Notes under the pieces: model-generated
What the model saw: the letters and a program-made list of their open reading frames with translations, nothing else
The model's database searches: none
What the model was told of the DNA's origin: nothing
Part shown: one piece after another, positions 3,100 to 63,999 of the stretch
How positions within the stretch are numbered: position 1 is the stretch's first letter
Layout of the letters: each line of letters begins with the position of its first letter
Source: Magallana gigas
Lineage: Eukaryota
DNA length: 64,000 nt
Direction: 5' to 3'
NCBI RefSeq assembly: GCF_963853765.1
Contig: NC_088853.1
Location: 58,404,001-58,468,000 of the forward strand
Translations under genes and position numbers: made by a program

Positions 3100-3821
3100 G
3101 GGCATTTCAGATGAAAAGATTGGCGATTATTTACGGGATATAGAAATAAACACTTAGTTAAGTGACGAAGACAAAGAGTTCTTTGATAAAGCTCCAACCA
3201 TACAAGAATGCTCTGAAGCCGTACTTGGAATGAAGAACAATAAATCTCCTGGACTTGACGGCTTGCCTGTTGAGTTCTATAAAATGTTTTGGAAACGCCT
3301 AAAGCAGTATATGTTCGATGCGCTAATAAAATCTTTTGAGGATAAGGAACTAACAAATACACAAAAATGCTGTTTTGTCTTTGATTTATAAGAAAGGAAA
3401 ACTAGATGAACTTCAAAACTATCGTCCCATAAGTTTAACAAATTGTGCTTAAAAAATTATTGCTTGTGTTTTTTCTCGACGTTTTTAAAAAATTATAGAC
3501 AAATTAATAAACCCCGATCAGTCTGGATATATTAAAGGACGTTATATAGGAACAAATGCTAGACTTATTTTAGATATTTTTGATTACTGGGAAAAAAGCA
3601 ACGAATCAGGAATTCTCTTATTTGTTGACTTTCAGAAGGCATTCGATTCTGTTGAATGGGAGTTCCTGTTGCAGTCAATGATGAAATTTAATTTCGGTGT
3701 CAATATTGTTAAATGGATCAAAATTTTGTATACAAATCCTTATTTCTATATAAAAAACAATGGTTTGATCTCCAGAAAATGTCATACGTATAGAGGTATT
3801 AGACAAGGATGTCCCGTCTCA
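3100..3821 (+). mobile_element. Non-LTR retrotransposon (L1/Tx1-type) reverse transcriptase fragment, degenerate
   Basis: KNNKSPGLDGLPVEFYKMFW, LIYKKGKLDELQNYRPISLTN, DQSGYIKGRYIGTNARL, LFVDFQKAFDSVEW, RGIRQGCPVS. Has stops and frameshifts and ends before the YADD motif. Confidence 0.92.
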
Positions 3822-4210
3822 GATGCAGACACAGCAACGGGCGGAGTCTGCAGTCTAGTGGGCACAGATGTTGGCACAACGACGGATGGAGTCTGCGGCC
3901 TAGTGGGCACTGATGTTGGCACAACGACGGGTCGAGTCTGCGGTCTAGTGGGCACAGATGTTGGCACAACGACGGGCGGAGTCTGCGGTCTAGTGGGCAC
4001 AGATGTTTGCACAACGACGGGTGGAGTCTGCGGCCTAGTGGGCACAGATGTTGGCACAACGACGGGTGGAGTCTGCGGCCTAGTGGGCACATATGTTGGC
4101 ACAACGACGGGTCGAGTCTGCGGTCTAGTGGGCACAGATGTTGGCACAACGACGGGTGGAGTCTGCGGTCTAGTGGGCACAGATGTTGGCACAACGACGG
4201 GTGGAGTCTA
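3822..4210. repeat. 45-bp minisatellite, ~8.5 copies; probable coding exon 2 of the CHHC gene on the minus strand
   Basis: Unit ctagtgggcacagatgttggcacaacgacgggtggagtctgcggt. Minus-strand frames give PTSVPTRPQTPPVVV or LHPSLCQHLCPLDRR repeats. A tag| acceptor lies at the array edge (~4208). Confidence 0.95.
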
Positions 4211-4290
4211 ATTTGATTTAATCGTATGTCGATTTATCAATAAGTTAGTAAAGCATGATTTTTTTAACCACGGGCATGGCTCATTTCACC

Positions 4291-4558
4291 TTGGATTGGT
4301 TAGTATTCCCCTCTTGCAAGACTCATCTTTTGCCTTTACAGAGGACAAGTAATCCTCACATTCCCTACATAAGGTACGTCCTTCACTCTTCTTTATTTTG
4401 TGAATAAAATCGTACTCACATGCCCTAAATAGGCGGGCTCCAGATTGATTACTTCTCTCGCATGTTCTAAGATGACGGGAGAATCTCTCAGTCCTAATTA
4501 TGTGCTTTGCCTCATATGGACAAACACGAAATCCCGCATACACTGGATAGTCCCCCAA
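4291..4558 (-). CDS. GTSF1/Asterix-like tandem CHHC (U11-48K-type) zinc-finger protein, exon 1; possibly pseudogenised
   Basis: CPYEAKH-IIRTERFSR-H-LRT-C fits C-x5-H-x9-H-x3-C. A 13-aa linker leads to CEYDFIH-KIKKSEGRT-L-CRE-C, in which the second His is replaced by Leu. The start is TTG; there is a donor ag|gtgaaa at 4290. Confidence 0.7.
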
Positions 4559-4661
4559 GTTAATGTTTTTATAAAATAAAATGTTACATATACACTGTAC
4601 ATTTATATTTCATGCGATTAAAATTTTAAAATTTTAAGCGGAATTTATCTTAACTTAATTT

Positions 4662-5126
4662 ATTAACAGGGTTTTCGAACGGAAAAATCCGGTTATAAAA
4701 ATGGTGAAAAATGGCGGGCGGGCGGCTGCTAAAAGGGTACCCTCATTGTACGGATAACTCCTCCTACAGTTTTCAAGATAGGAAGTTGTTCTTTTGCAGA
4801 TCAATTGTACATATATCAGAGGTGTGCATATTGCTTGGATTTAAATTTTTGATATTTTATGATAAAAATACCAGCTTTAGATCTTGCTATCTTTTTGGCA
4901 AATCAAATTGCAGATCAATTGTACATAAATCAGAGGTGAGCATATTGCTAGGATTTTTATTTCTGATTATTTATGAAAAAAAATACTAGCTTTTGAACGT
5001 TTTGGGGGGCAAAATATTGCAAATAGGGTACTCCATTTCGCTGGATACGGGTTGACATGGATTATGGACACCGTTCACAAAAAAGAAAACCCGGTTTGCT
5101 GTCACATTGACAGCTTTTCACTTGTT
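4662..5126 (+). mobile_element. Non-autonomous Helentron-like (HINE/pearl-type) element, family 1
   Basis: 5' AACAGGGTTTTCGAACGGAAAAATCCGGTT palindrome, a GGCG microsatellite, internal core repeats and a 3' ctgtcacattgacag hairpin + cttgTTT. A second copy lies at 33842-34338. Confidence 0.7.
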
Positions 5127-5192
5127 TTTTTTTTAGCACGGTGAAACTCTTATACGTAATATAATTAAATTAGGTCAAGTTATCAATTTACT

Positions 5193-5420
5193 AGTAGTAT
5201 AGTAGATAACATGCAGCCACAGTCAAGGTCCCTAACCCAATGACGTCATGGGGTTAACCTGGGGTAATGACCAAGAAGAAGGTCCCACCCAATGACGTCA
5301 TCGGTTAACCACAGTCAAGAAACCCAGAGTCAAGAGAAATTCCACAGTCACAGTCGAGAAACCCTACAATCACAATTAAGAAACCCCACAGTCAAAGCCC
5401 ATTCTGATGACGTTTATAGA
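5193..5420 (+). mobile_element. Polinton/Maverick-type left terminus (variant 1)
   Basis: AGTAGTATAGTAG start; CCCAATGACGTCA at 5241 and 5293; repeated ACAGTCA motifs. Same architecture as 8404, 13261 and 57337. Confidence 0.5.
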
Positions 5421-6480
5421 AGAGTCATAATTTAAGCTCAATTGTGATGAAGTCAGCATTTTGTTTCTATATTCACCAGAGTAGCCTGTAGCCGTGAAGG
5501 TTAATATTAATATTACTTTCTGAAAGGTAACTACCAGTAGATTGACCAATCAACAGTCAAGTGACTTCATGATGATGTTAAAAATCATAAGGAATCTACA
5601 GTCCTCAATAATCGCCATCCTGAATATGACAAGCACGAATGGTACAGTGACATATTTTACAAAACACTTATTATTAAAATCACGAACTAGCTAATAATAT
5701 ATAGCAGAAAATACTTGTGCAAAAAAGTAAGTAATTTTGTTAACATACTTTACTAGAAGTTTTTCTTGGATTACATTATAAGAAAAATCATTTAAAATAT
5801 AATGTAGTCAATAGAAGTATTACTAATACTTAGAAAATCATTATAGATCAGGTATGAGGAACTGAACCATAATTTGTATTATTTATCTTCATTTTAAAAA
5901 AATGTCGGACATTGTAGTAAATTTATTTATTTACAAACTAAACACATCGCGAAGAATGTGCTGGAATGAAAAACACCTGTCATGTGTTATCCTACAAACT
6001 TTATTGAACTTTACTGGCACAGTTCACATTTCAGTATCGTCGTTGTTTGGTTAAAGTAAAACAGTTCTCATTTTATTTTCTCTTTACAATTAATTTAAAA
6101 TATTTGTTTGAAATTGATAAGACCCGACCACTGGGTATTGATTGAAACTTTGTTTACATATTGCAATTTTTTTTAGTACCTGTCATGTTTTTCATTTTTA
6201 TATCTACCACAGACAAACATACATTTCTTTGTTTGAGGTCAAGGTTACCGGATCCGGAAGTCATAGTTGTTAATGTAAATACAAATTAGTTGCATAGCAG
6301 TGTTCAAAAGCAGCAGTGTTAAAACTAATTTAATTTGAACTGTTTTTTTAATGGTTCATGGGATTAATATAATCGGTAATTAACTTGCGATTTTTTGTGT
6401 ATTTTTGATAATTAACATTCTTCTGAAAAAAAACCTGCATATTCATAACTTTATCAAGCTATTCTGAATAGCGTTTTTAA

Positions 6481-47451: not shown

Positions 47452-49429
47452 ATGATTGTGATAGTTATTTTACATGTATTTCTCGGGATATGTTTGTCTC
47501 AGCACACTCCACCCTGTGACTGTCTAAACGAATTAGGAATTGCCTACTGTCGCCATGTACGGGCATGTCCAGAATTTGTATCAAATGTCCAGGTGGAATG
47601 TGCGATAAATGAAATAATTTTAAAAGCAAACACGTCGCTTGACCAAGTACTGATCCACGGGGAATGTAGCAACATGTCGGTATACAAGCGATTGTGCATG
47701 TATGCAATTAAGCAAATAGTATTGCGGTCTACCAGAGAAAGTTTCCTTTGTTCAGGTAATTATATACTTAAAAAACTGAAGTGTGATTGGTGAAGCAAAA
47801 TTACTGTACTCGAGTGTTAATTTATCTGTTAAGGTGATATTTTCGACTTATTGTGTAGGTAAGTTAATTTGAAGACCTATTTTGGAAACAGTTAAGTTAT
47901 TGTATTTCAGAGTTGAATTTTATAAAATTTGCGTAAAAAAATTATAGAAATAATTTACAAAATAAAAAAAAATACAAGAAATTGGATTTCAAAAGTTTTG
48001 GAATAAAACTTTTTTTGGTCACATGACCTCTTCTTTGTTTCTCAAATCTGCGAACCTTCCTCTGTGCAATCACCCGTGTGAAGCGTGACACCGTTATCAG
48101 TCATTCCCTCATGGCGTGTTCACTGATGAACGGACGCGTGTTGTGTAAAGGTACAGAACTTTTGTTTAATCTCACAGATCATTGTAAAATTCTGTCTTTT
48201 ATGTCAAATGTTTAAACGCTTTTATGAATATCAAATCTCTGATGCAAATGAAGTGGAAAATTAAACTTTATCTGTAGATTTGACCACGACGATGAAACCG
48301 GGCTGTTGGAAATCACCAGCGAGAAGCGTGAGTAATCTCTTCTTTTTGTCACTGTATCTTCTTTTTTATTAATACCTTTAATTGGGCGATTTGGTTTTAG
48401 ATTTCTGTTAAAGTTTTCGTGGGAAAACTAACATTGTATTACAGGGTTTTTTCCCACGCGTTCGATCGTTTCGATCGAGCGCGCACACAAACAGGGTAAA
48501 AATGAAATATTTTTTTTTAGAGATTGAAAAAGAAAAGAAATAAAAACAATTATGGACAACTTTTTATTGTTGATGTTGTGAATACACTCCTCTGTTCGTG
48601 TGAGTGGAGAAGAGTGCAATTGATTATTATCGAACATGCGCGGATCTGAAAGGGAGTGGGGTGGGTCCCGACCAACCACCCCCCCCCCCCTTTCTATTTG
48701 GAAAATAAAAAATTATTATATTAATATGGTAAAATTATTGCATATATGCCTCGGACCCCCCACCCCCGGCTAACAATTATCCTTCGGAACCACCCCCCCC
48801 CCCCACACCCCTTTTGGAAAAAAAAAAATTCTGGATCCGCGCATGCCAGAATCCATTTTTTATTTTGCAAATTAAAATGTGATTTTTTTTCCCCTTAAAT
48901 TTAGATTTTACACTCGGAAGGGGTTCGTCACGGACATACAACAACTTTTCAACCACTGACGTAACCGAACAGCATGCTAACAGAAGCACACTTATTAATG
49001 AATCTTATGCATTTAATAGTACACCAATCCCGTATGAAACTACTTCGCCCGAAAATGAATCCCTGGCATTGTCTCCTATAACTACTGCTAATGTTTTAAC
49101 AGCGACTATGCATGACAGTACTCCGCTTACGCAATCAGTAAAACAGACCACCCCCCTTATTAAACACTCCACAAATAACAACAAATGCCTCTTTACCAAA
49201 TGCAGCTACTTTCTCTTTGCATCATTTTACTGTCACCTCAAATTTGACGGACTTGACGACTGCTGACATACAAACTCGTATAACCACCATCGGAACGAAA
49301 AACACTGAGTCCTTCGGTACGAATCACGACCAACTGCTTTACATTTTATTTTGTGTACCTCTTTTGATATTTGCATGTTTTATTATATATATTATTAAAA
49401 GAAATTTTAATCGTAGGCGAAAACACTAA
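47452..49429 (+). pseudogene. Type I membrane glycoprotein: signal peptide, Cys-rich domain, mucin-like stalk, TM, basic tail (frameshifted)
   Basis: MIVIVILHVFLGICLSQHTPPCDCLNELG.. with a donor tcag|gtaatt at ~47756; a small exon at ~48278-48330 ending gc|gtgagt; a Thr/Ser-rich exon at ~48920-49429 ending LLYILFCVPLLIFACFIIYIIKRNFNRRRKH*. Several N-x-S/T sites are present. Confidence 0.6.
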
Positions 49430-49748
49430 CATGTAACTCAGCACGTCAGTGATTGGGAAAATGATGATACCGATGAAGAATTTTTTTTGCATGAGCTGTG
49501 CATGGAAATTAGACAAGTAAGTAATTTTATTGCTAAAAACCTTTTACAAGTTAAAAATTATTTTAATTTCATGAAGGATGACGTTTGATGAAAATTTAAA
49601 AATCAGTCATGAATAATTATACATTTTCATCGAAATGAACTAATATTTTTTATGTAATTTTTAATGGGGGTCATTGATATGACTTAAAATGATTTACATT
49701 CTTATCACAGTGAAGAAATGTATTTTTTACAATTTTTTAGTTTTTTAC

Positions 49749-50161
49749 AAGCCTTCAGTATTGCCATTACGGCCATGATCATGGCCGGCTTGATCGGCCT
49801 TAGCATTCTGCTGCGGTATCTCCTGAGGAGATACCGCAACTACATTTTGCGGAGGGGGGGGGGGGGCAGGACACCCTTACGGCGGCGCCACGTGAAGTTG
49901 CCAGGGCAGACCATTCATGCCGCCGGACCCTGGCCGCTGCACAGAAGCTGGAAGCGGCCCCCTGACAACCATTAAGAAAGAGCCGCGGTGACCCCCCATT
50001 CCTGCCACTGCACCCTGGCCGCGGTACAGGAACTCCACCACGTGCAGGCGGCCATCAAAAAGGAACCGGTATCCCCCTGCTCCTGCCGCTGGACTCTGTC
50101 CATGCCGGTGATCTCTCCGAGGAGGGACCCCTACCTCAGGGACGAGCTGATTGCCTTGTAA
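49749..50161 (+). pseudogene. Frameshifted paralog of the small TM/repeat protein at 673-1068
   Basis: AFSIAITAMIMAGLIGLSILLRYLLRR.., then frameshifts, with the same repeats (..QELHHVQAAIKKEP..RDPYLRDELIAL*). Confidence 0.65.
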
Positions 50162-50544
50162 TCTTAATCATCTGATTAAACCCGATAACAAAACTTTTAA
50201 ACTTGCTTGGTGTTTTTTCCCCACTGTTTTCCTATATGATGAGACGAAAGAAATATCTGCATTTGTTTTTGGCTGATTTCTTTCTTTCTTTCTTTTTTTT
50301 GGTAACTATATTATAATTTTAGAAATAAAAAAAAAATGTTTATATTTCTTAACGTCTCAAAAACTGTAATGAGAGTTTCAAGCAAAACCAAAAAGAAGAT
50401 GCCTGAGGCAATTTGATCAGCTGAAAAATGAAACGATGGTTGAGAAAATCAAAAATAGTATGCAAGTTTGTCTAAAACATTTAAGACCATTTAGTATCGG
50501 TATTTATCTCCTGTTTGTCAAACAATTATCTGAACGACGTAAAG

Positions 50545-53500
50545 ATGCAACATCGATGCAGATATCATTAAAAAAATCTATAGTGGTGATAAAAAATACC
50601 GATAATCTATGTCTGTTAAGAGCTGCTCTTGTGGCTTTCTGCAGTGCTTGTAGAACGAGCAACGACGAATACAGGAGATTGAAAAATTTGCATTCTACTC
50701 TCACCCCAGCCGAAATTCTCATTCAGTTTGAGAAATGCCCACAGTGGTACTATAGACAAGTGTGTCAAAATACTGATCAAAAGCAGGACACCCTCACTCG
50801 GTCTGTGTGTTATTCATTGGCCATTTCGAAAGACCAACCGTTAACGTACTCATTGATCCCAAAATTAGAGGATTATTTCAATGTAAACATTGACGTAATA
50901 AGCTCTGCTTTGAGTAACGCATTTTCATACATCAGTCAAAACTGCGATGAGGAAAGAAAAAAAATATTTTTATACCACATAGACAGGGACCTGGGACACT
51001 TTCATGCCATTGTTAAAATATGTGGCTTTTTTTAAGTTCGTATTTCTGTTCTTCGTGTCTGACCCCGTATGATCATAAACATAAACATGCTTGTAAGAAT
51101 CATTGCAGCGTTTGTTTGTCGGATGATTGTGAAAACCAGCAGGTTTGGATTTGTCAAGATTGACACCGAACTTGCAGATCTGCGGAGTGTTACAAAAGGC
51201 ATAAAATGCGTACCGAAAGCGGTAGAGTACCATGCGAGCTAGTATACAAATGTCCGACCTGTCACAAAATCGTGGAACAATGCGAGATGAAGCCTGAGGA
51301 TCACAAGTGCGGGTACTTTACGTGTAAATCTTGCCTTCAGTATGTAGAACCGGAACATCTCTGTTACGCGAGAAGCTACCCCCCTTCCGACAACGGAACG
51401 CGACGCTACATTTTTGCCGATATAGAGGCATCGCAGAGGGATGAAATAGTGCAGTGTGAATGGGGATATGCCCCTCGCCTTGACACAAACTGCGCTCAAT
51501 GTATTCAAGAGGAAAAGACCTGTTTGGATTGCCGTCGATGTCAGCATTGTCTCCAGTCTTACTGCGGAAAATCAAGGCATTCTGTTGTCTTAGCCGTCTG
51601 TCAGTCCGCCTGTACAAAGTGCGAAAACAATGACATGACTCCAGAGAGCACATGCAATGAATGCGGAGATCGGTGCAATCGTTGTGCTAAAAGAGATAAA
51701 AAGACCAAACGATATATCAGAACCCCCTGTCCCGGAGAGTGTGGATTCCGAGAGCGCGTGTTTAAGACTCTGTACGACTTGGGTAGATGGATATTCCACG
51801 AAAACCACAGAGGGTATACGGTCGTTTTTCACAATCTGTCATACGATGTTCAATTTCTACTTCAGTACCTCATATCGCAGACTATACGACATTCCTTTAT
51901 TATCTACAGCGGTAGTAAAGTGCAAATGTTTAACGTGAATGCTTTACAGATCAGAGAGATTGATTCATTTCATTTTTTACCCATGGCCCTGGCAAAATTA
52001 CCTGGAGCATTCCAACTGGAATCATTAGCCAAAGTATATTTCCCGCACTTCTTTACGTGTCGGGAAAATTTATCATACGTGGGGCCGTATCCCCCGCCTG
52101 AGACTTACGGGTTCGATGACATGTCAATCGAAGGGCGGGAAAAATTCTACGAGTGGTATCGGGAAAAAATTGACAGCGGAGAAGTGTTTGATATTCATAG
52201 CGTAAAAGGTGAAATACTGTCGAAGCGACGTCGATATACTGCGGCGAGCCTGTATAAAATTCAAACACCTCCTACACGAAGCGACTAGCAGAGACGGAGG
52301 TCGCGCCATTGACGCATTTGACTCCTGTACCATAGCATCTCTTTGCATGGAAGTTTACAAGCAAAAATTTCTTGAAGAGCAGTGGCGATTAATCGTCAAG
52401 GAAAACGACCAAGAGATCCGGATAGATGCTAAAAAAATAAACGGAAAAACATCTGTCCTCTATCAGTTTAGATAGACTTGAACGAATTTAAGAAAATGAA
52501 CATGGAAATAATCAAGGAAGTTTTCGTGAAGTCCCCCATTGCTCGTCCACCGCCGAACGGATATCAGGTTTGTATACCATTCAGCAGAAAATCCATAGCA
52601 TGGCTCTAATTGTTAATGCAGCGCGCCCGCACAAACGGTCAACACCTGGATATTTGCCATGCATTAAACGGAAGAGGGGAGTACCGAGTACCGGAAACTC
52701 GTTATCGACTAGATGGTTACGTAGCACCTACCACCGAATTTCCCGCCGGAATTGCTTATGAATTTCACGGCTGTCGTTTTCACGGATGTCCTGCGTGCTT
52801 CAAAAACGGAGGTGATATTTTACTTCCAAACTCCGAGTATACTGCATCCGAGTTGCTTGCACGGACCCGTAATAAAGAAAGAAAGTTAAAGAGTCTGGGA
52901 ATGAAACTTGTCGTCATCTGGGAACACGAATATGACACCGTGATTAAGGAGGACCCTGACGCCAAAACCTTTGTCGAAAACCTGGAATTGACTGAGCGTC
53001 TAGACCCCCGGGATAGTCTTATGGGTGGACGTACAAACGGATGTGTGTTGTACAAAAGAGCGCCACGAGATACAAAAATACGTCGATTTTACCTCGCTGT
53101 ACCCTTTCGTTAACAAGACGGCACGATATCCGACCGGACATCCCGAGATCATCACTCGTGAGTTTGACGATATCTCAAAATATTTCGGACTGGCAAAGGT
53201 AAAAGTTCTCCCGCCTCGAGGACTTTTTCACCCAGTGCTCGGTTACCGCTCGCGGGGAAAGTTAACTTTTCCGTATGTCGATCGTGTGTGGAGCGCCAAC
53301 AGAAAGAACCTTGCGCTTGTTCGGACGCGGACAGAGCATTGACGGGTACTTACTATACACCCGAACTTCTCAAAGCCGTTGAAAAGGGGTACACGATCCT
53401 CAAAATCTACGAAGTCTACCATTGGAGCGAATCAACTCAGTTCGACTCTGTAACCAAGACGGGTGGACTATTTGCGCCTTATATCAACATGTTTTTGAAA

Positions 53501-54369
53501 ATTAAACAAGAGGCCAGTGGACGACCCGACTGGATCAAGACGGAGGATGACTTTGCTCAATATATCGAGATGTACGAGCAGAGAGAAGGTTTTCGTCTAG
53601 ACTCCGACAATATTGAGCACAATCCGGTCTACGTAGCCTGGCAAAGCTTCTATTGAATAGTTTCTGGGGTAAATTTGGACAGAGAATGAACATCTGCAAA
53701 ACGCAGATTCTTCACGACAGCCAAGCTCACGTGTTGTTTGAGCAGATGGCCAATCCAACTATAGAAATTCAGGATTTTAATATCATAGACGACAACCATC
53801 TCATGCTGTCTACTAAACGTACCTCGGAGGACATGTGCGACCCCAGTCACAGCAATGTTTTTTTTGGCTTCATTTACTACCTGTTGGGCCCGCCTTAAGT
53901 TGTACGAAATATTAGATTTGTTGCAAACCCGCGTTTTGTACTGGAACACAGACTCGGTAATCTATACCCAAAAGGAAGGGGAAATAGAATTTCCCATTGG
54001 TGATTATCTGGGTGAACTTACAAACGAATTGAAAAAGGACGACTGGATTATCGAGTTTGTGTGCAATGGTCCTAAAATTATGCATACAGAACCCATAAAG
54101 GAAAGGAGGTATGCAAAGTCAAGGGATTTTCCCTAAATTACATCAATTCGACAATCCTTAATTTAAACAGCATGAAAGACGCCATGTTCCATCGCGAGAA
54201 TTCATTGGCGGGAAACTACTGCACAGTAGTCGTCCACAATCCCAACAATATCAGTCGAGAAAAAATTCATTGCGAACTTTATTGCCAAGAGGAAATTAAG
54301 AAATATGCATCTGTGTATACGAAACGAGTTGTGCAACCAAATTTGACAACACTTCCTTATGGTTATTAA
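50545..54369 (+). pseudogene. Protein-primed family-B DNA polymerase (Polinton/Maverick/adintovirus type) with Vsr-like nuclease insert; ~8 frameshifts
   Basis: IKNTDNLCLLRA; ExoI YIFADIE; ExoII HNLSYD; ExoIII YCRSDV; insert YRLDGY..AYEFHGCRFHGCP..VIWEHE; GGRTN; motif A DFTSLYP; motif B KLLLNSFWGKFGQ; motif C YWNTDS; C-terminal KRV..TLPYGY*. Confidence 0.93.
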
Positions 54370-60015: not shown

Positions 60016-63000
60016 TCACATTTTAAAGTCCTTAAAACGTTGCGGAACTGTCTTTACACGGGTTGACCTTCTCAAGACTGGCTCTGTTGGTTTTCTTGCG
60101 ATAGGTTCCCTCACAGAAGGCCGTCCTTCATCACCTGTATCAGCTGATACAATGATCGGTTCACTGTAAGTCTCTGGAATATCGGACACATCACTTTCGG
60201 AAGTTCCCGGTTCTTGATACTTTTTCACAAACTCGCTATTCCTCTTCAATGTGACTCCTTCTGGTGATTCAACAACACAGCTGTTTCCAGTTTTCTGTAC
60301 CAAAGTATATGGCTCTGCATGGTACGGAGTGTCCATTTTGTCTTTGACTGCTTTCTTCAAAAGGACTGAATCTCCAGGCTCTAAGTCGCAATCCACTGCA
60401 CCACGTTTCTCATCAACATATAGCTTGTTTCTGTACTTTGAATACACATCCTTATCTCGCATTTCTTCATCAAACACATTTTCTTGTAGATTCTCTACTT
60501 GTGGTAATTTTGTCCTCAGTTTACGGCGGAACATCAATTCTGCAGGTGACACCCCAGTTGTACTGTGTGGAGTTGTTCGATATGCAAACAAGTATTTCCG
60601 GATTTCTTTCTTCCAATCCTTAGATTCTGCTTGTGCAATTCTAATCCTTTTCATCAATGACCGGTTTTGACGTTCAACTTCCCCGTTTGCAGCCGGATGT
60701 AATGGTGTAACTGCTCTGTGTTTGATGCAGTTATCTGTCAAATAATCCTCAAATAACTTAGACTTGAATTGTGGTCCATTATCAGATGTAATTTGATATG
60801 GAATTCCGTGTCTACAAAACATTCCCTCTAGAGCATCAATGATTTTCTCACTTGTAATGTCTTTGGTAATTTCAATTTCATAATAACGGCTGAAGTAGTC
60901 CACTACAACTAACACATATTGTCCTGATGTTAATGGTCCCAGTAAGTCAATTGCCAACTCTTGCCACGGTCCCGTCGGTAAAGGTGTTGGACTGATTGGC
61001 TCCGGTTTTGGATATGCACTAGTAATCTGACATCCATGACATGATTTCACGTACTTTTCCACTTCTTTGTCCATACCAGGCCACCAAACTTTCGTCCTAA
61101 GTTGTTGTTTTGTCCCAACAATGCCCAAGTGCCCCTGGTGTGCTAACTGAACACACTGTTTTCTCAGACTTCTCGGAATCACAATCCTAGATCCACGTAA
61201 CACAAGGTATCCAATAGAACAAAATTCATCTCTGAATGGAAAATAGTCAACACAAGATTTTTCCCATTCCCCTTCTTTAATGAATCTACAAAATCTGACA
61301 AGTTCTTCGTCCCTCTTTGAAACTTCTTCTACTTCTCGAGTAGACAATGCATGAGGCGTAGCTTCCCTCGCTATAAATTTCACATATTGTTCAGTCTCCA
61401 CAGAGTTACTGTTTTCCACAGGTTTGTTTTCCACTAAACGTGACAATGCATCTGCAATATTCTGATGTCCAGGTAAGTAACGCACTTTGAAATTGTATGC
61501 CATAAGTTTCAACAACCAGCGTTCAATTCGTGCATTTGGTCGAGATTTTCTTCCATAAAGAACTTCTAATGGCTTGTGATCTGTAATCAGCTCAAACTCT
61601 ACACCATACAAGTAAATATGGAACTTCTCACATGCCCACACAACTGCCAGAGCTTCTTTCTCTGTTGTCGAATAATTGCGTTCTGCCACGGACAATGTAC
61701 GGCTTGCATAACAGATGACTCTCGTTTCACCTTTGTGCACTTGAAGTAAGACTGCTCCAAGGCCTACATTGCTAGCATCTGTCACTAACTGTGTTTTTTC
61801 TGCATCTAACCTGTAGTGTCCTAAAGTTTCCACATTTGACAAACAACGTTTCAACGTATCAAAACTCTTCTTCTGTTCATGTCCCCATACGAAGTTCACA
61901 TTCTTCTTTGTCAATCTCCTCAGCGGTTCTGACACAGTCGCTAGGTTTGGTATATATCGTGCACTAAAGTTTACAAGTCCAAGGAAACTTTTCACTTCAG
62001 ATCCACTTGTTGGCTCTTTTGCATCCAGTAATGACTTGATCCTGTCACTTGTTGGCCCAATACCATTCTTAGACATCACATGACCCATGAATGTTATTTT
62101 GTTCATGCTAAATTCACACTTTGCTTGGTTCAGCGTAAGTCCTTTTTCTTTAATTCTCTGCAATGCTTTACGAAGTCTTTTATCATGTTCTGCTTTGTCA
62201 CGCCCATGGATCACAATATCATCTGAAATGTTTTGTACTCCCTCACAATCATGAAATACTTGTGAAATCACTTGCTGATATTTTTCTGGTGCTGATGAAA
62301 TACCAAACATCAGTCTTTTATATCTATACAGGCCTTTGTATGTTACAAATGTAGTGATCTCCCTTGAAGATTCCTCCAACTCAATCTGATGGTATCCACT
62401 TCTAAGGTCCAACTTGCTAAACACTTCACTACCATTCACATTGTAGAGTATTTCTTCCACAGTCGGAATAGGGTGTCTTTCACGAATAATCGCAGCATTG
62501 GCTTGTCTCATGTCGACACACAATCTGATGTCACCATTGGATTTCGGTACAATAATGACTGGACTGACCCAAGGTGTAGGAGAATTCACTTTCTCAATGA
62601 TATCCTGAGATTCAAGGTCATCAAGTTGCTCTCCAACTTTCTCTCTCAAACTGTATGGAATCCTGTACATAGCTTGGGCAACAGGTTTTACGTCCTGATC
62701 AATATGCAGCTTTAACTTAAAGTTTTTCAGCTTTCCTATTCCTTGGAAACACTCTGGGTATTCACGAACAATGTCAAATGATTGTACACTGTTGACACCA
62801 AGTTTAAGAACTCCTAGATTCGTAGCGGTATCTTTGCCTAGCAGTGCTGGTCCTTTTCCATTCAACACATAGAATTCTTCTTCACTACCATTGCCTGTTT
62901 CCTCGATCAAGGTATGTGTTCGAAATTTTCCTAACAATTTCAGTGGTTCTGTAGAACTATATGCATAGAGTTTCTTCTCACACTTTTCAGAATAACATTT

Positions 63001-63999
63001 TAGGCGTTTCTTCTTGAGAACTTCCCACAGTTCTTTGTCTATAATATTGGCTGATGCACCACTATCAATAACGAATTCCACTGGATGTCCTCCAAGACTG
63101 ACCGTAACTTTGTCTGATGACTTGTCCGATGTCTTCAGAATAAATGCAAACACATCTGAATCAGATTCCGACTCTACTGTATGAATCTGTCCTCCTCTCT
63201 GAGATTTCTGTGCCATACGTTTTCCTTGTTTTGGCTTCGTTAAGCAGCAGCTCATGAAGTGTCCCACATTTCCACATTTCCTGCATTCCTTATCTTTTGC
63301 CGGACATGATGGATCTCTGGCTAAGTGTCCTTCTCGTCCACAACGAAAACACTTATTTCCATACTTTCTGTTCTCGAATCTACCAGTACGTCTTGGTTTC
63401 TCTGTTTTAGGCCCACGTCCATGAATTTTATTTATTGATGCCACTAATTCGGTATCCATATGTCTTGCCTGTGCCTCTGTCATTTCAAATGTCGCAGCTA
63501 TTGTCCTCAACTGTTCCAGTGTTAAGTCTTTTCCTTTCTCTAACAACTTAGCTCTGATTTTATGAGACATGCACTTTTCAATCACCTGATCCCGAATTTG
63601 CTCATCCTGATTTGCAAAATCACAATATACTGCTTGCTGTCTAAGTTTCGTTATAAACTGTTCTACAGTTTCTTTATCACTTTGTGTTATCTTACGAAAT
63701 ACGTACTGTTCATATGGAACATTCACTTTGTTTTCAAAATGTTTATTTAACGTTTTGACAGCCACGGTATACACACTATCTTCTTGCTCTGCACGGACTT
63801 CATTCAGCGTATAATAAATATCCTGAACTTCTGGTCCTGCACAATGTAACAGTAAAGCTTTTCTTTGTTCAGGGTTACTCACCCCCTTTCCAACCGCAAA
63901 AAGTTCGAAACTTCTATGCCACCGTTTCCAAGACTGATTTAACTGTGACGGTTCTGCGTTTGGGTCGAACTTCTGAACACCATTCAGTTCAATAAGCGA
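60016..63999 (-). CDS. Ty3/Gypsy LTR retrotransposon single-ORF gag-pol polyprotein (5' end beyond the window), apparently intact
   Basis: Open from the window edge (SLIELNGVQKFDP..). Gag with a CCHC knuckle CFRCGREGHLARDPSC, protease FVIDSGAS, RT (LCVDMR, ISDDIVI), RNase H (TDASNVGLGAVL, TDHKPL), integrase HHCC (AHQGH..CHGC) and D,D-35-E core (IDLLG, SDNG, NGEVER). The order PR-RT-RH-IN is Gypsy. Confidence 0.97.
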   Translation of the reverse strand, partial: SLIELNGVQKFDPNAEPSQLNQSWKRWHRSFELFAVGKGVSNPEQRKALLLHCAGPEVQDIYYTLNEVRAEQEDSVYTVAVKTLNKHFENKVNVPYEQYVFRKITQSDKETVEQFITKLRQQAVYCDFANQDEQIRDQVIEKCMSHKIRAKLLEKGKDLTLEQLRTIAATFEMTEAQARHMDTELVASINKIHGRGPKTEKPRRTGRFENRKYGNKCFRCGREGHLARDPSCPAKDKECRKCGNVGHFMSCCLTKPKQGKRMAQKSQRGGQIHTVESESDSDVFAFILKTSDKSSDKVTVSLGGHPVEFVIDSGASANIIDKELWEVLKKKRLKCYSEKCEKKLYAYSSTEPLKLLGKFRTHTLIEETGNGSEEEFYVLNGKGPALLGKDTATNLGVLKLGVNSVQSFDIVREYPECFQGIGKLKNFKLKLHIDQDVKPVAQAMYRIPYSLREKVGEQLDDLESQDIIEKVNSPTPWVSPVIIVPKSNGDIRLCVDMRQANAAIIRERHPIPTVEEILYNVNGSEVFSKLDLRSGYHQIELEESSREITTFVTYKGLYRYKRLMFGISSAPEKYQQVISQVFHDCEGVQNISDDIVIHGRDKAEHDKRLRKALQRIKEKGLTLNQAKCEFSMNKITFMGHVMSKNGIGPTSDRIKSLLDAKEPTSGSEVKSFLGLVNFSARYIPNLATVSEPLRRLTKKNVNFVWGHEQKKSFDTLKRCLSNVETLGHYRLDAEKTQLVTDASNVGLGAVLLQVHKGETRVICYASRTLSVAERNYSTTEKEALAVVWACEKFHIYLYGVEFELITDHKPLEVLYGRKSRPNARIERWLLKLMAYNFKVRYLPGHQNIADALSRLVENKPVENSNSVETEQYVKFIAREATPHALSTREVEEVSKRDEELVRFCRFIKEGEWEKSCVDYFPFRDEFCSIGYLVLRGSRIVIPRSLRKQCVQLAHQGHLGIVGTKQQLRTKVWWPGMDKEVEKYVKSCHGCQITSAYPKPEPISPTPLPTGPWQELAIDLLGPLTSGQYVLVVVDYFSRYYEIEITKDITSEKIIDALEGMFCRHGIPYQITSDNGPQFKSKLFEDYLTDNCIKHRAVTPLHPAANGEVERQNRSLMKRIRIAQAESKDWKKEIRKYLFAYRTTPHSTTGVSPAELMFRRKLRTKLPQVENLQENVFDEEMRDKDVYSKYRNKLYVDEKRGAVDCDLEPGDSVLLKKAVKDKMDTPYHAEPYTLVQKTGNSCVVESPEGVTLKRNSEFVKKYQEPGTSESDVSDIPETYSEPIIVSADTGDEGRPSVREPIARKPTEPVLRRSTRVKTVPQRFKDFKM

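Follow-up and report, generated by a model that had tools for sequence, protein, structure and literature searches.

A GTSF1-like gene carried by oyster Polintons and a truncated relic of it in the genome of Magallana gigas

The GTSF1/Asterix proteins (mouse GTSF1, Bombyx Gtsf1/Gtsf1L and Xenopus D7) are the closest described relatives of the oyster gene reported here, with which they share two zinc fingers in tandem, the first of CHHC type, four basic residues in finger 1 and an acidic Trp motif after the fingers. For mouse GTSF1, the accessible part of a preprint reports that the four basic finger-1 residues are required for RNA binding and potentiation, and that Trp residues of the central region are required for PIWI binding (bioRxiv 10.1101/2021.05.04.442675); the structure of a SIWI-GTSF1 complex has also been solved (9nhc). 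The oyster genes differ from this family in that they occur in multiple copies inside Polintons, have an intronless coding region and lack the host-type tail, while their finger 2 is remodelled (CHCC-type in subfamily A) and their Trp motif is sometimes duplicated.

Plant VANDAL/VANC proteins and viral RNAi suppressors counter small-RNA or chromatin silencing; a comparable action of transposon-encoded proteins on the animal piRNA pathway is not established. The oyster protein would share this element-encoded anti-silencing logic, which is only proposed for it; to our knowledge, none of the plant and viral factors is derived from a host silencing cofactor and none acts on PIWI. Mobile elements with piRNA-pathway gene sequence are known from the telomeric retroelements of Drosophila, whose captures are described, in the portion of the report available, as ~90%-identical fragments acting via piRNAs (PMC13534243), whereas the oyster gene, carried by a virus-like DNA element, is complete as an ORF, has diverged and is selected as a protein. 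Mavericks have been described, in the accessible text of a preprint, as vehicles of horizontal gene transfer (bioRxiv 10.1101/2022.07.12.499685), and the extra gene of the oyster elements resembles such cargo in sitting between PolB and the TIR; no piRNA-pathway cargo of Mavericks/Polintons came up in our literature searches. Nor was a description of GTSF1-like Polinton cargo found, although supplements, subscription papers or Repbase entries might mention it; GTSF1 and Polinton are mentioned together in a Drosophila review, as far as its accessible text goes. Maverick gene capture and retroelement capture of piRNA-gene fragments (PMC13534243, as far as available) are known already; what is new here is the carriage by Polintons of a complete GTSF1 homolog under selection.

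The analysis started from a 64,000-nucleotide stretch of M. gigas DNA, here called the window (assembly GCF_963853765.1, contig NC_088853.1, positions 58,404,001 to 58,468,000), in which a sequence-only reading had placed a GTSF1-like gene with a TTG start at 4209 to 4558. The features of this gene copy are as follows:

4303..4557, minus strand: relic of a Polinton-borne GTSF1-like gene of subfamily A', truncated at its 5' and 3' ends
4460..4522, minus strand: CHHC finger 1, above the PF05253 cut-off and aligned to 6x46
4358..4420, minus strand: finger 2, remodelled to C-x5-H-x10-C-x2-C, a subfamily trait
4556..4558, minus strand: TTG at the 5' junction, no genuine start, with unrelated sequence upstream
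4216..4302, minus strand: unrelated repeat joined at the 3' break, which contributes the final codons and, at 4286-4288, the stop

The zinc-finger identification was borne out. Finger 1 has the exact C-x5-H-x9-H-x3-C spacing, which occurs once in the six frames of the window and in none of 30 mononucleotide shuffles, and the HMM check that had been proposed places it above the cut-off of Pfam zf-U11-48K (22.9 versus 21.1 bits); its best PDB sequence match is mouse GTSF1 (6x46, E=1.3e-5). The inter-finger linker of 13 aa does match that of mouse GTSF1, as the sequence-only reading had it, while the mollusc host GTSF1 proteins have 11. Three of the four RNA-binding positions of mouse GTSF1 are basic (the equivalents of R26, R29 and K39), with a Thr at K36. 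The second His of finger 2 is indeed missing, with a Cys one position further on; the same C-x5-H-x10-C-x2-C arrangement is found in the copies at C4:48.28 Mb and C1:54.79 Mb and in 14 other A-type proteins. This ligand change is consequently no private lesion of the window copy, since the A/A' siblings inspected at finger 2 have it too, but a fixed trait of subfamilies A and A'.

The proposed extent and start of the gene were not upheld. By blastn, homology to the complete C4:48.28 Mb copy (79.7%) and to the C1:54.79 Mb copy (91.8%) covers exactly 4303..4557, and the stop-to-stop ORF on the minus strand spans 4286-4609, so that the frame already stops at 4286-4288 and does not reach 4209. Upstream of 4557 unrelated sequence stands where the siblings have their leader and start codon; since sibling homology starts at that position, the TTG is a junction product. 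Read and contig coverage likewise ends at ~4557, where the loose ends carry the sibling leader. At the other break, loose ends at 4298 and 4308 run on into differing sequences, while the 3' junction of the window copy recurs at C1:56.448 Mb. The C-terminal Trp motif is missing, because homology to the complete sibling stops at 4303 and the last codons come from another repeat; lacking this aromatic/acidic PIWI-binding segment, the window copy is classed as a relic and not as a member of GTSF1/Asterix. In three raw RNA runs, 0 of 34, 0 of 29 and 0 of 13 mapped reads matched the window copy at 99% identity. The window copy is thus a dead, doubly truncated leftover, and the suggestion that it might be a captured decoy of the piRNA pathway fails for this copy, which, truncated at both ends, cannot act as one; such a role could be proposed only for the complete copies described below.

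The surroundings of the relic comprise the following features:

3158..3830, plus strand: broken non-LTR reverse transcriptase fragment of Tx1/L1 type (RVT_1, E=8e-14)
3830..4209, minus strand: 45-bp tandem array of 8.4 units, encoding a Pro/Thr-rich stretch
4660..5112, no strand assigned: dispersed repeat upstream of the GTSF1-like gene, which also breaks up a B-like GTSF relic at 56.446 Mb
5114..5192, no strand assigned: target repeat hosting the insertion of the element at 5193, with empty sites at C1:63.88, 62.60 and 54.78 Mb
5193..5716, plus strand: AGTAGT terminus, oriented away from the GTSF1-like gene, of another Polinton-type element
8404..9230, plus strand: second Polinton-type terminal module, also present at 13261

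The gene had been described as embedded in Polinton-type debris and lying ~650 bp from an AGTAGT terminus. Its immediate neighbours are instead the reverse transcriptase fragment, the 45-bp array, which precedes a BEN-like ORF in the C1:56.448 Mb copy, and the dispersed repeat, tentatively labelled 'Helentron-like'. PolB fragments of another group do lie at 51-54 kb, where a broken protein-primed PolB (DNA_pol_B_2) at 50373-53656 on the plus strand belongs to a Polinton group other than that of the two carriers described below. The AGTAGT terminus does exist, at 5193 and a distance of 635 bp, but the proposed link between it and the gene does not hold: the left flank is present at three other loci that lack the terminus, which is therefore a separate insertion, and the junction of this element is also found at C1:56.445 Mb. 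The motif AGTAGTA itself occurs nine times in the window versus 7.0 expected, i.e., at chance level. No core protein of the carrier Polintons matches anywhere in the window, and the relic is not located between paired TIRs with core genes. The 8404-type module lies upstream of each of the four A' copies, at a distance of ~2-11 kb, where it recurs in tandem and with flanks in common, a pattern which suggests that Polinton debris may have been spread by segmental amplification. Of the other sequences in the window, the AGTAGT terminal modules at 8404, 13261 and 57337 are mutually related, 331-1945 resembles 48932-50537 at 77-82%, and 60016-63999 (minus strand) holds an LTR retrotransposon gag-pol with an unbroken 1327-aa frame that continues past the window end.

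Genome searches returned at least 13 GTSF1-like copies without a coding intron, consisting of four B, two A and four A' copies (the window copy included) as well as three B-like relics. The B copies are 95-100% identical to each other; complete ORFs are present in five of the 13 copies, and the remaining eight are broken. Host GTSF1, on the other hand, is a tandem array of four intron-split genes at C5:10.47-10.51 Mb (L090-L094), and at least two of these host paralog types are present in Saccostrea. The element-type genes neither contain introns in their coding region nor group with mollusc GTSF1, as a host orthologue would. In the tree that had been called for, all 15 element-type rows form one branch of their own (support 97/97) with a long stem. 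The analysis did not recover a grouping of this branch with the oyster host genes, nor could such a grouping be rejected (AU p=0.47, after removal of three rows that were long or gappy). The two readings that would have refuted an element-borne gene, namely that it is the single host GTSF1 or an isolated dead duplicate never linked to mobile elements, are contradicted by the four host paralogs on C5 and by the 13 copies, three of which lie within paired Polinton TIRs.

Two of these three TIR-bounded copies lie in elements with perfect 6-bp TSDs:

C1:3193865-3212930: carrier Polinton of 19,066 bp with TIRs and a perfect 6-bp TSD
C4:48263658-48282479: carrier Polinton of 18,822 bp with TIRs and a perfect 6-bp TSD

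Both carriers have the size (15-20 kb), the long TIRs starting with AGT and the 6-bp TSD by which Polintons/Mavericks are defined. They are colinear, share ~70% DNA identity and have the GTSF1-like gene downstream of PolB on the same strand. According to Pfam, both encode an rve+chromo integrase, a C5 protease and an A32-like ATPase, with Pox_A32 at or just below the cut-off and Peptidase_C5 above it in one of the two. The polymerase motifs A, B and C of PolB were recognized by direct reading, as Pfam DNA_pol_B_2 gave no match, and a low-confidence model (pLDDT 52) of the 441-aa capsid resembles double jelly-roll capsids (Foldseek E=4e-11), matching those of PBCV-1, Sputnik and mavirus; sequence searches of PDB and PHROGs did not identify the carrier polymerase and capsid. 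Of note, the PolB genes of the carriers are apparently split by spliceosomal-type introns between conserved motifs (L032:7050-8145, L016), and the C1:3.2 Mb element contains a 1.4-kb inversion in its ATPase/PolB region (L015:7584-9029). Cys-rich, signal-peptide-like accessory ORFs are common to three Polinton families (L097:3355-3777, L098:4414-4878, L120:7111-7443), without a Pfam match in the members scanned.

Inspection of 10-20 kb on either side of all 13 copies showed core genes within 20 kb of four, and a B TIR end 1.1-1.5 kb from each of the four B copies. Relics at 54.79, 61.54, 60.91 and 56.23 Mb retain carrier-type flanks or accessory genes, while the carrier context has been lost around the window copy and two copies at 56.45 Mb. 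The suggestion of the sequence-only reading that the GTSF1-like gene could be element-borne is supported by the other copies inside Polintons and not by the window copy, which has neither TIRs nor core genes. A third Polinton family (capsid 83% identical) has no GTSF1-like gene in either of the two copies examined, and neither does a 5.6-kb deleted B element; the gene is accordingly dispensable, as shown by a sibling family that does without it. Weak HMM matches (E 1-2) in the sibling E family were considered as a gene relic and rejected as a local repeat.

Among the A and A' copies, dN/dS is 0.16 for the window versus the 54.79 Mb copy, 0.15 for the window versus the C4 copy and 0.14 for the C4 versus the 54.79 Mb copy, with bootstrap upper limits on pN/pS of 0.36-0.39 for the three pairs, and the A versus B pN/pS of 0.38 falls within the range of eight core genes (0.15-0.63). 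The B copies are too alike for a selection test, those at 3.21 and 10.46 differing by three nonsynonymous and no synonymous changes. These data bear on the explanation that the gene has been domesticated by the host as an extra GTSF1, or is passive cargo of no benefit to the element. Such an explanation could draw on the concentration of 12 of the 13 copies on chromosome C1, nine of these within the stretch rich in capsid genes at 54-62 Mb, and on the absence of the gene from one sibling family; it is nevertheless quite improbable, as constraint on the gene equals that on core element genes, copies decay after their elements break, and 95-100% identical copies at four distant loci have moved with their TIRs. 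The density of Polinton capsid genes along C1 at ~53-65 Mb is an observation in its own right, and this region could be a piRNA-cluster-like trap. We conclude with high confidence that the GTSF1-like gene is an element-borne, selected gene of Polintons.

Related sequences of the element type occur beyond M. gigas. Public collections contain further lineages, mostly unnamed and without genomic context, at 35-98% pairwise identity, and a relative in C. virginica (XP_078330801) shows that the clade spans both species; P0006 and P0012, which resemble bisulfite-converted reads, were excluded from profiles and trees. Scans of viral and metagenome contigs returned 57 and 128 pattern matches, none of which was confirmed as a relative. 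One B-type copy is annotated 'Protein D7' in M. gigas (K1PLJ1), and some oyster 'GTSF1/D7' annotations are thus Polinton cargo. The public gene models P0020, P0111, P0023 and P0246 join the GTSF1-like gene to neighbouring exons; the fused exons of the three M. gigas-type models tested map within the B element, and the fused tail of the C. virginica model had no match among the matches listed.

The element proteins measure 105-161 aa and are 26-37% identical to mollusc GTSF1, with the host introns and the long C-terminal tail absent. The PF05253 cut-off is exceeded by the window copy as well as by proteins of the A, B and C. virginica types, and the residue numbering of mouse GTSF1 fits the 6x46 alignment exactly. 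Of the 13 element representatives scored (of 14), 12 have a basic residue at each of the four RNA-binding positions, a count relied on in preference to a wider census (91 of 112 sequences) that mixes near-identical alleles and some mis-caught fingers. The Trp motif, which aligns with host exon 3, is present in all five complete genomic copies and occurs twice in tandem in P0230 and in a cluster of 91 members; among the 14 representatives the Trp itself is substituted in two and the motif cut short in two. Finger 2 retains the CHHC spacing in B-type proteins and is CHCC-type in A/A', with no separate Pfam stretch. When the 14 representatives were compared with three mollusc host proteins, identity was 52% for finger 1, 46% for the Trp motif and 26% for finger 2, the last being the best-conserved part among hosts (89%) and conserved at 66% among elements. 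The AlphaFold model obtained for the B protein is of low quality (pLDDT 57), and its top Foldseek hits, GTSF1 structures only at E>0.05, were not counted.

The retention of finger 1 and the Trp motif suggests that the element protein probably works via PIWI binding. A PIWI-independent job in the element cycle, such as binding of tRNA or element RNA or partnership with an RdRP, would be in keeping with the tRNA binding reported for GTSF1 finger 1 (PMC9539491, in the text available), with the binding of nematode GTSF-1 to RRF-3 and not to PIWI (PMC13650160, likewise), and with a finger 2 that is remodelled yet conserved among elements. We consider it unlikely, however, given that the acidic Trp motif, for which PIWI binding is the role described, has been kept across 35-98% pairwise identity and duplicated in some lineages.

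The following course of events is proposed. The element branch would go back to one ancient capture of a host GTSF1 transcript, as indicated by a coding region devoid of host introns and of the long tail of the host proteins. Finger 1 and the Trp motif, retained while finger 2 was remodelled, would allow the protein to dock on PIWI engaged with a target and, by competing with host GTSF1, to reduce slicing of element RNA. In C. gigas, one class of piRNA clusters is reported to show a 32-fold enrichment of Polintons, and PIWIs to be expressed in soma and germline (PMC6128900, in its accessible part), and this enrichment would give Polintons a motive to interfere. That the complete protein docks on host PIWI, competes with host GTSF1 and dampens piRNA-guided slicing of element RNA is our preferred reading, with a chance somewhat short of even, and the net effect on PIWI slicing may, with similar reserve, be inhibitory. 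More tentatively, Polintons may once have captured GTSF1 and made it a competitive slicing inhibitor, with the Trp motif duplicated for avidity and finger 2 rebuilt.

With both activation modules, i.e., the basic residues of finger 1 and the Trp motif, retained, a working GTSF1 activator fits the protein equally well. Such an activator would boost or redirect host PIWI slicing, for example against competitors or the element's own copy number; GTSF paralogs can be PIWI-specific activators (PMC9808576, in the text available), and a duplicated motif would likewise raise affinity. This alternative nevertheless appears rather unlikely, since the host already has four paralogs, stronger slicing would be costly to elements enriched in piRNA clusters, and finger 2 departs from the host-conserved state. 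Element-derived piRNAs might also target host GTSF1 mRNA in the manner of TART/nxf2, following the precedent set in Drosophila by telomeric elements with captured fragments of nxf2, piwi or aub. This is highly improbable for the oyster gene: in comparisons of three element genes with ten host exons, every 28-nt window contained at least nine mismatches and the longest exact match was 12 nt, which disfavours piRNA targeting, while such targeting is lost at about 80% identity (PMC13534243, in the portion available for both points) and selection on the gene acts at the protein level.

The RNA data give weak evidence of expression. In samples of ~12.9 M reads, or 1%, from each of three raw RNA runs with no tissue given, no read covered the B coding region. 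Seven RNA runs containing half or more of the words of the B stretch were not counted as expression; in one of them, X4, alignment to B resembled DNA carry-over or pervasive transcription. In one RNA contig run the flank outside the TIR was covered as deeply as the gene, and the A' siblings had few RNA reads, in both mate orientations.

As for the preferred reading of a competitive inhibitor, the four-gene GTSF1 array of the host could, if that reading is true, be its arms-race counterpart. The element proteins constitute a small natural protein family for which a GTSF1/PIWI slicing assay separates inhibitor from activator. An activator would mean that a virus-like element supplies part of the host defence, while an inhibitor would represent a new class of anti-silencing factor, i.e., a transposon- or virus-encoded protein suppressor of the animal piRNA pathway built from the pathway's own activator.
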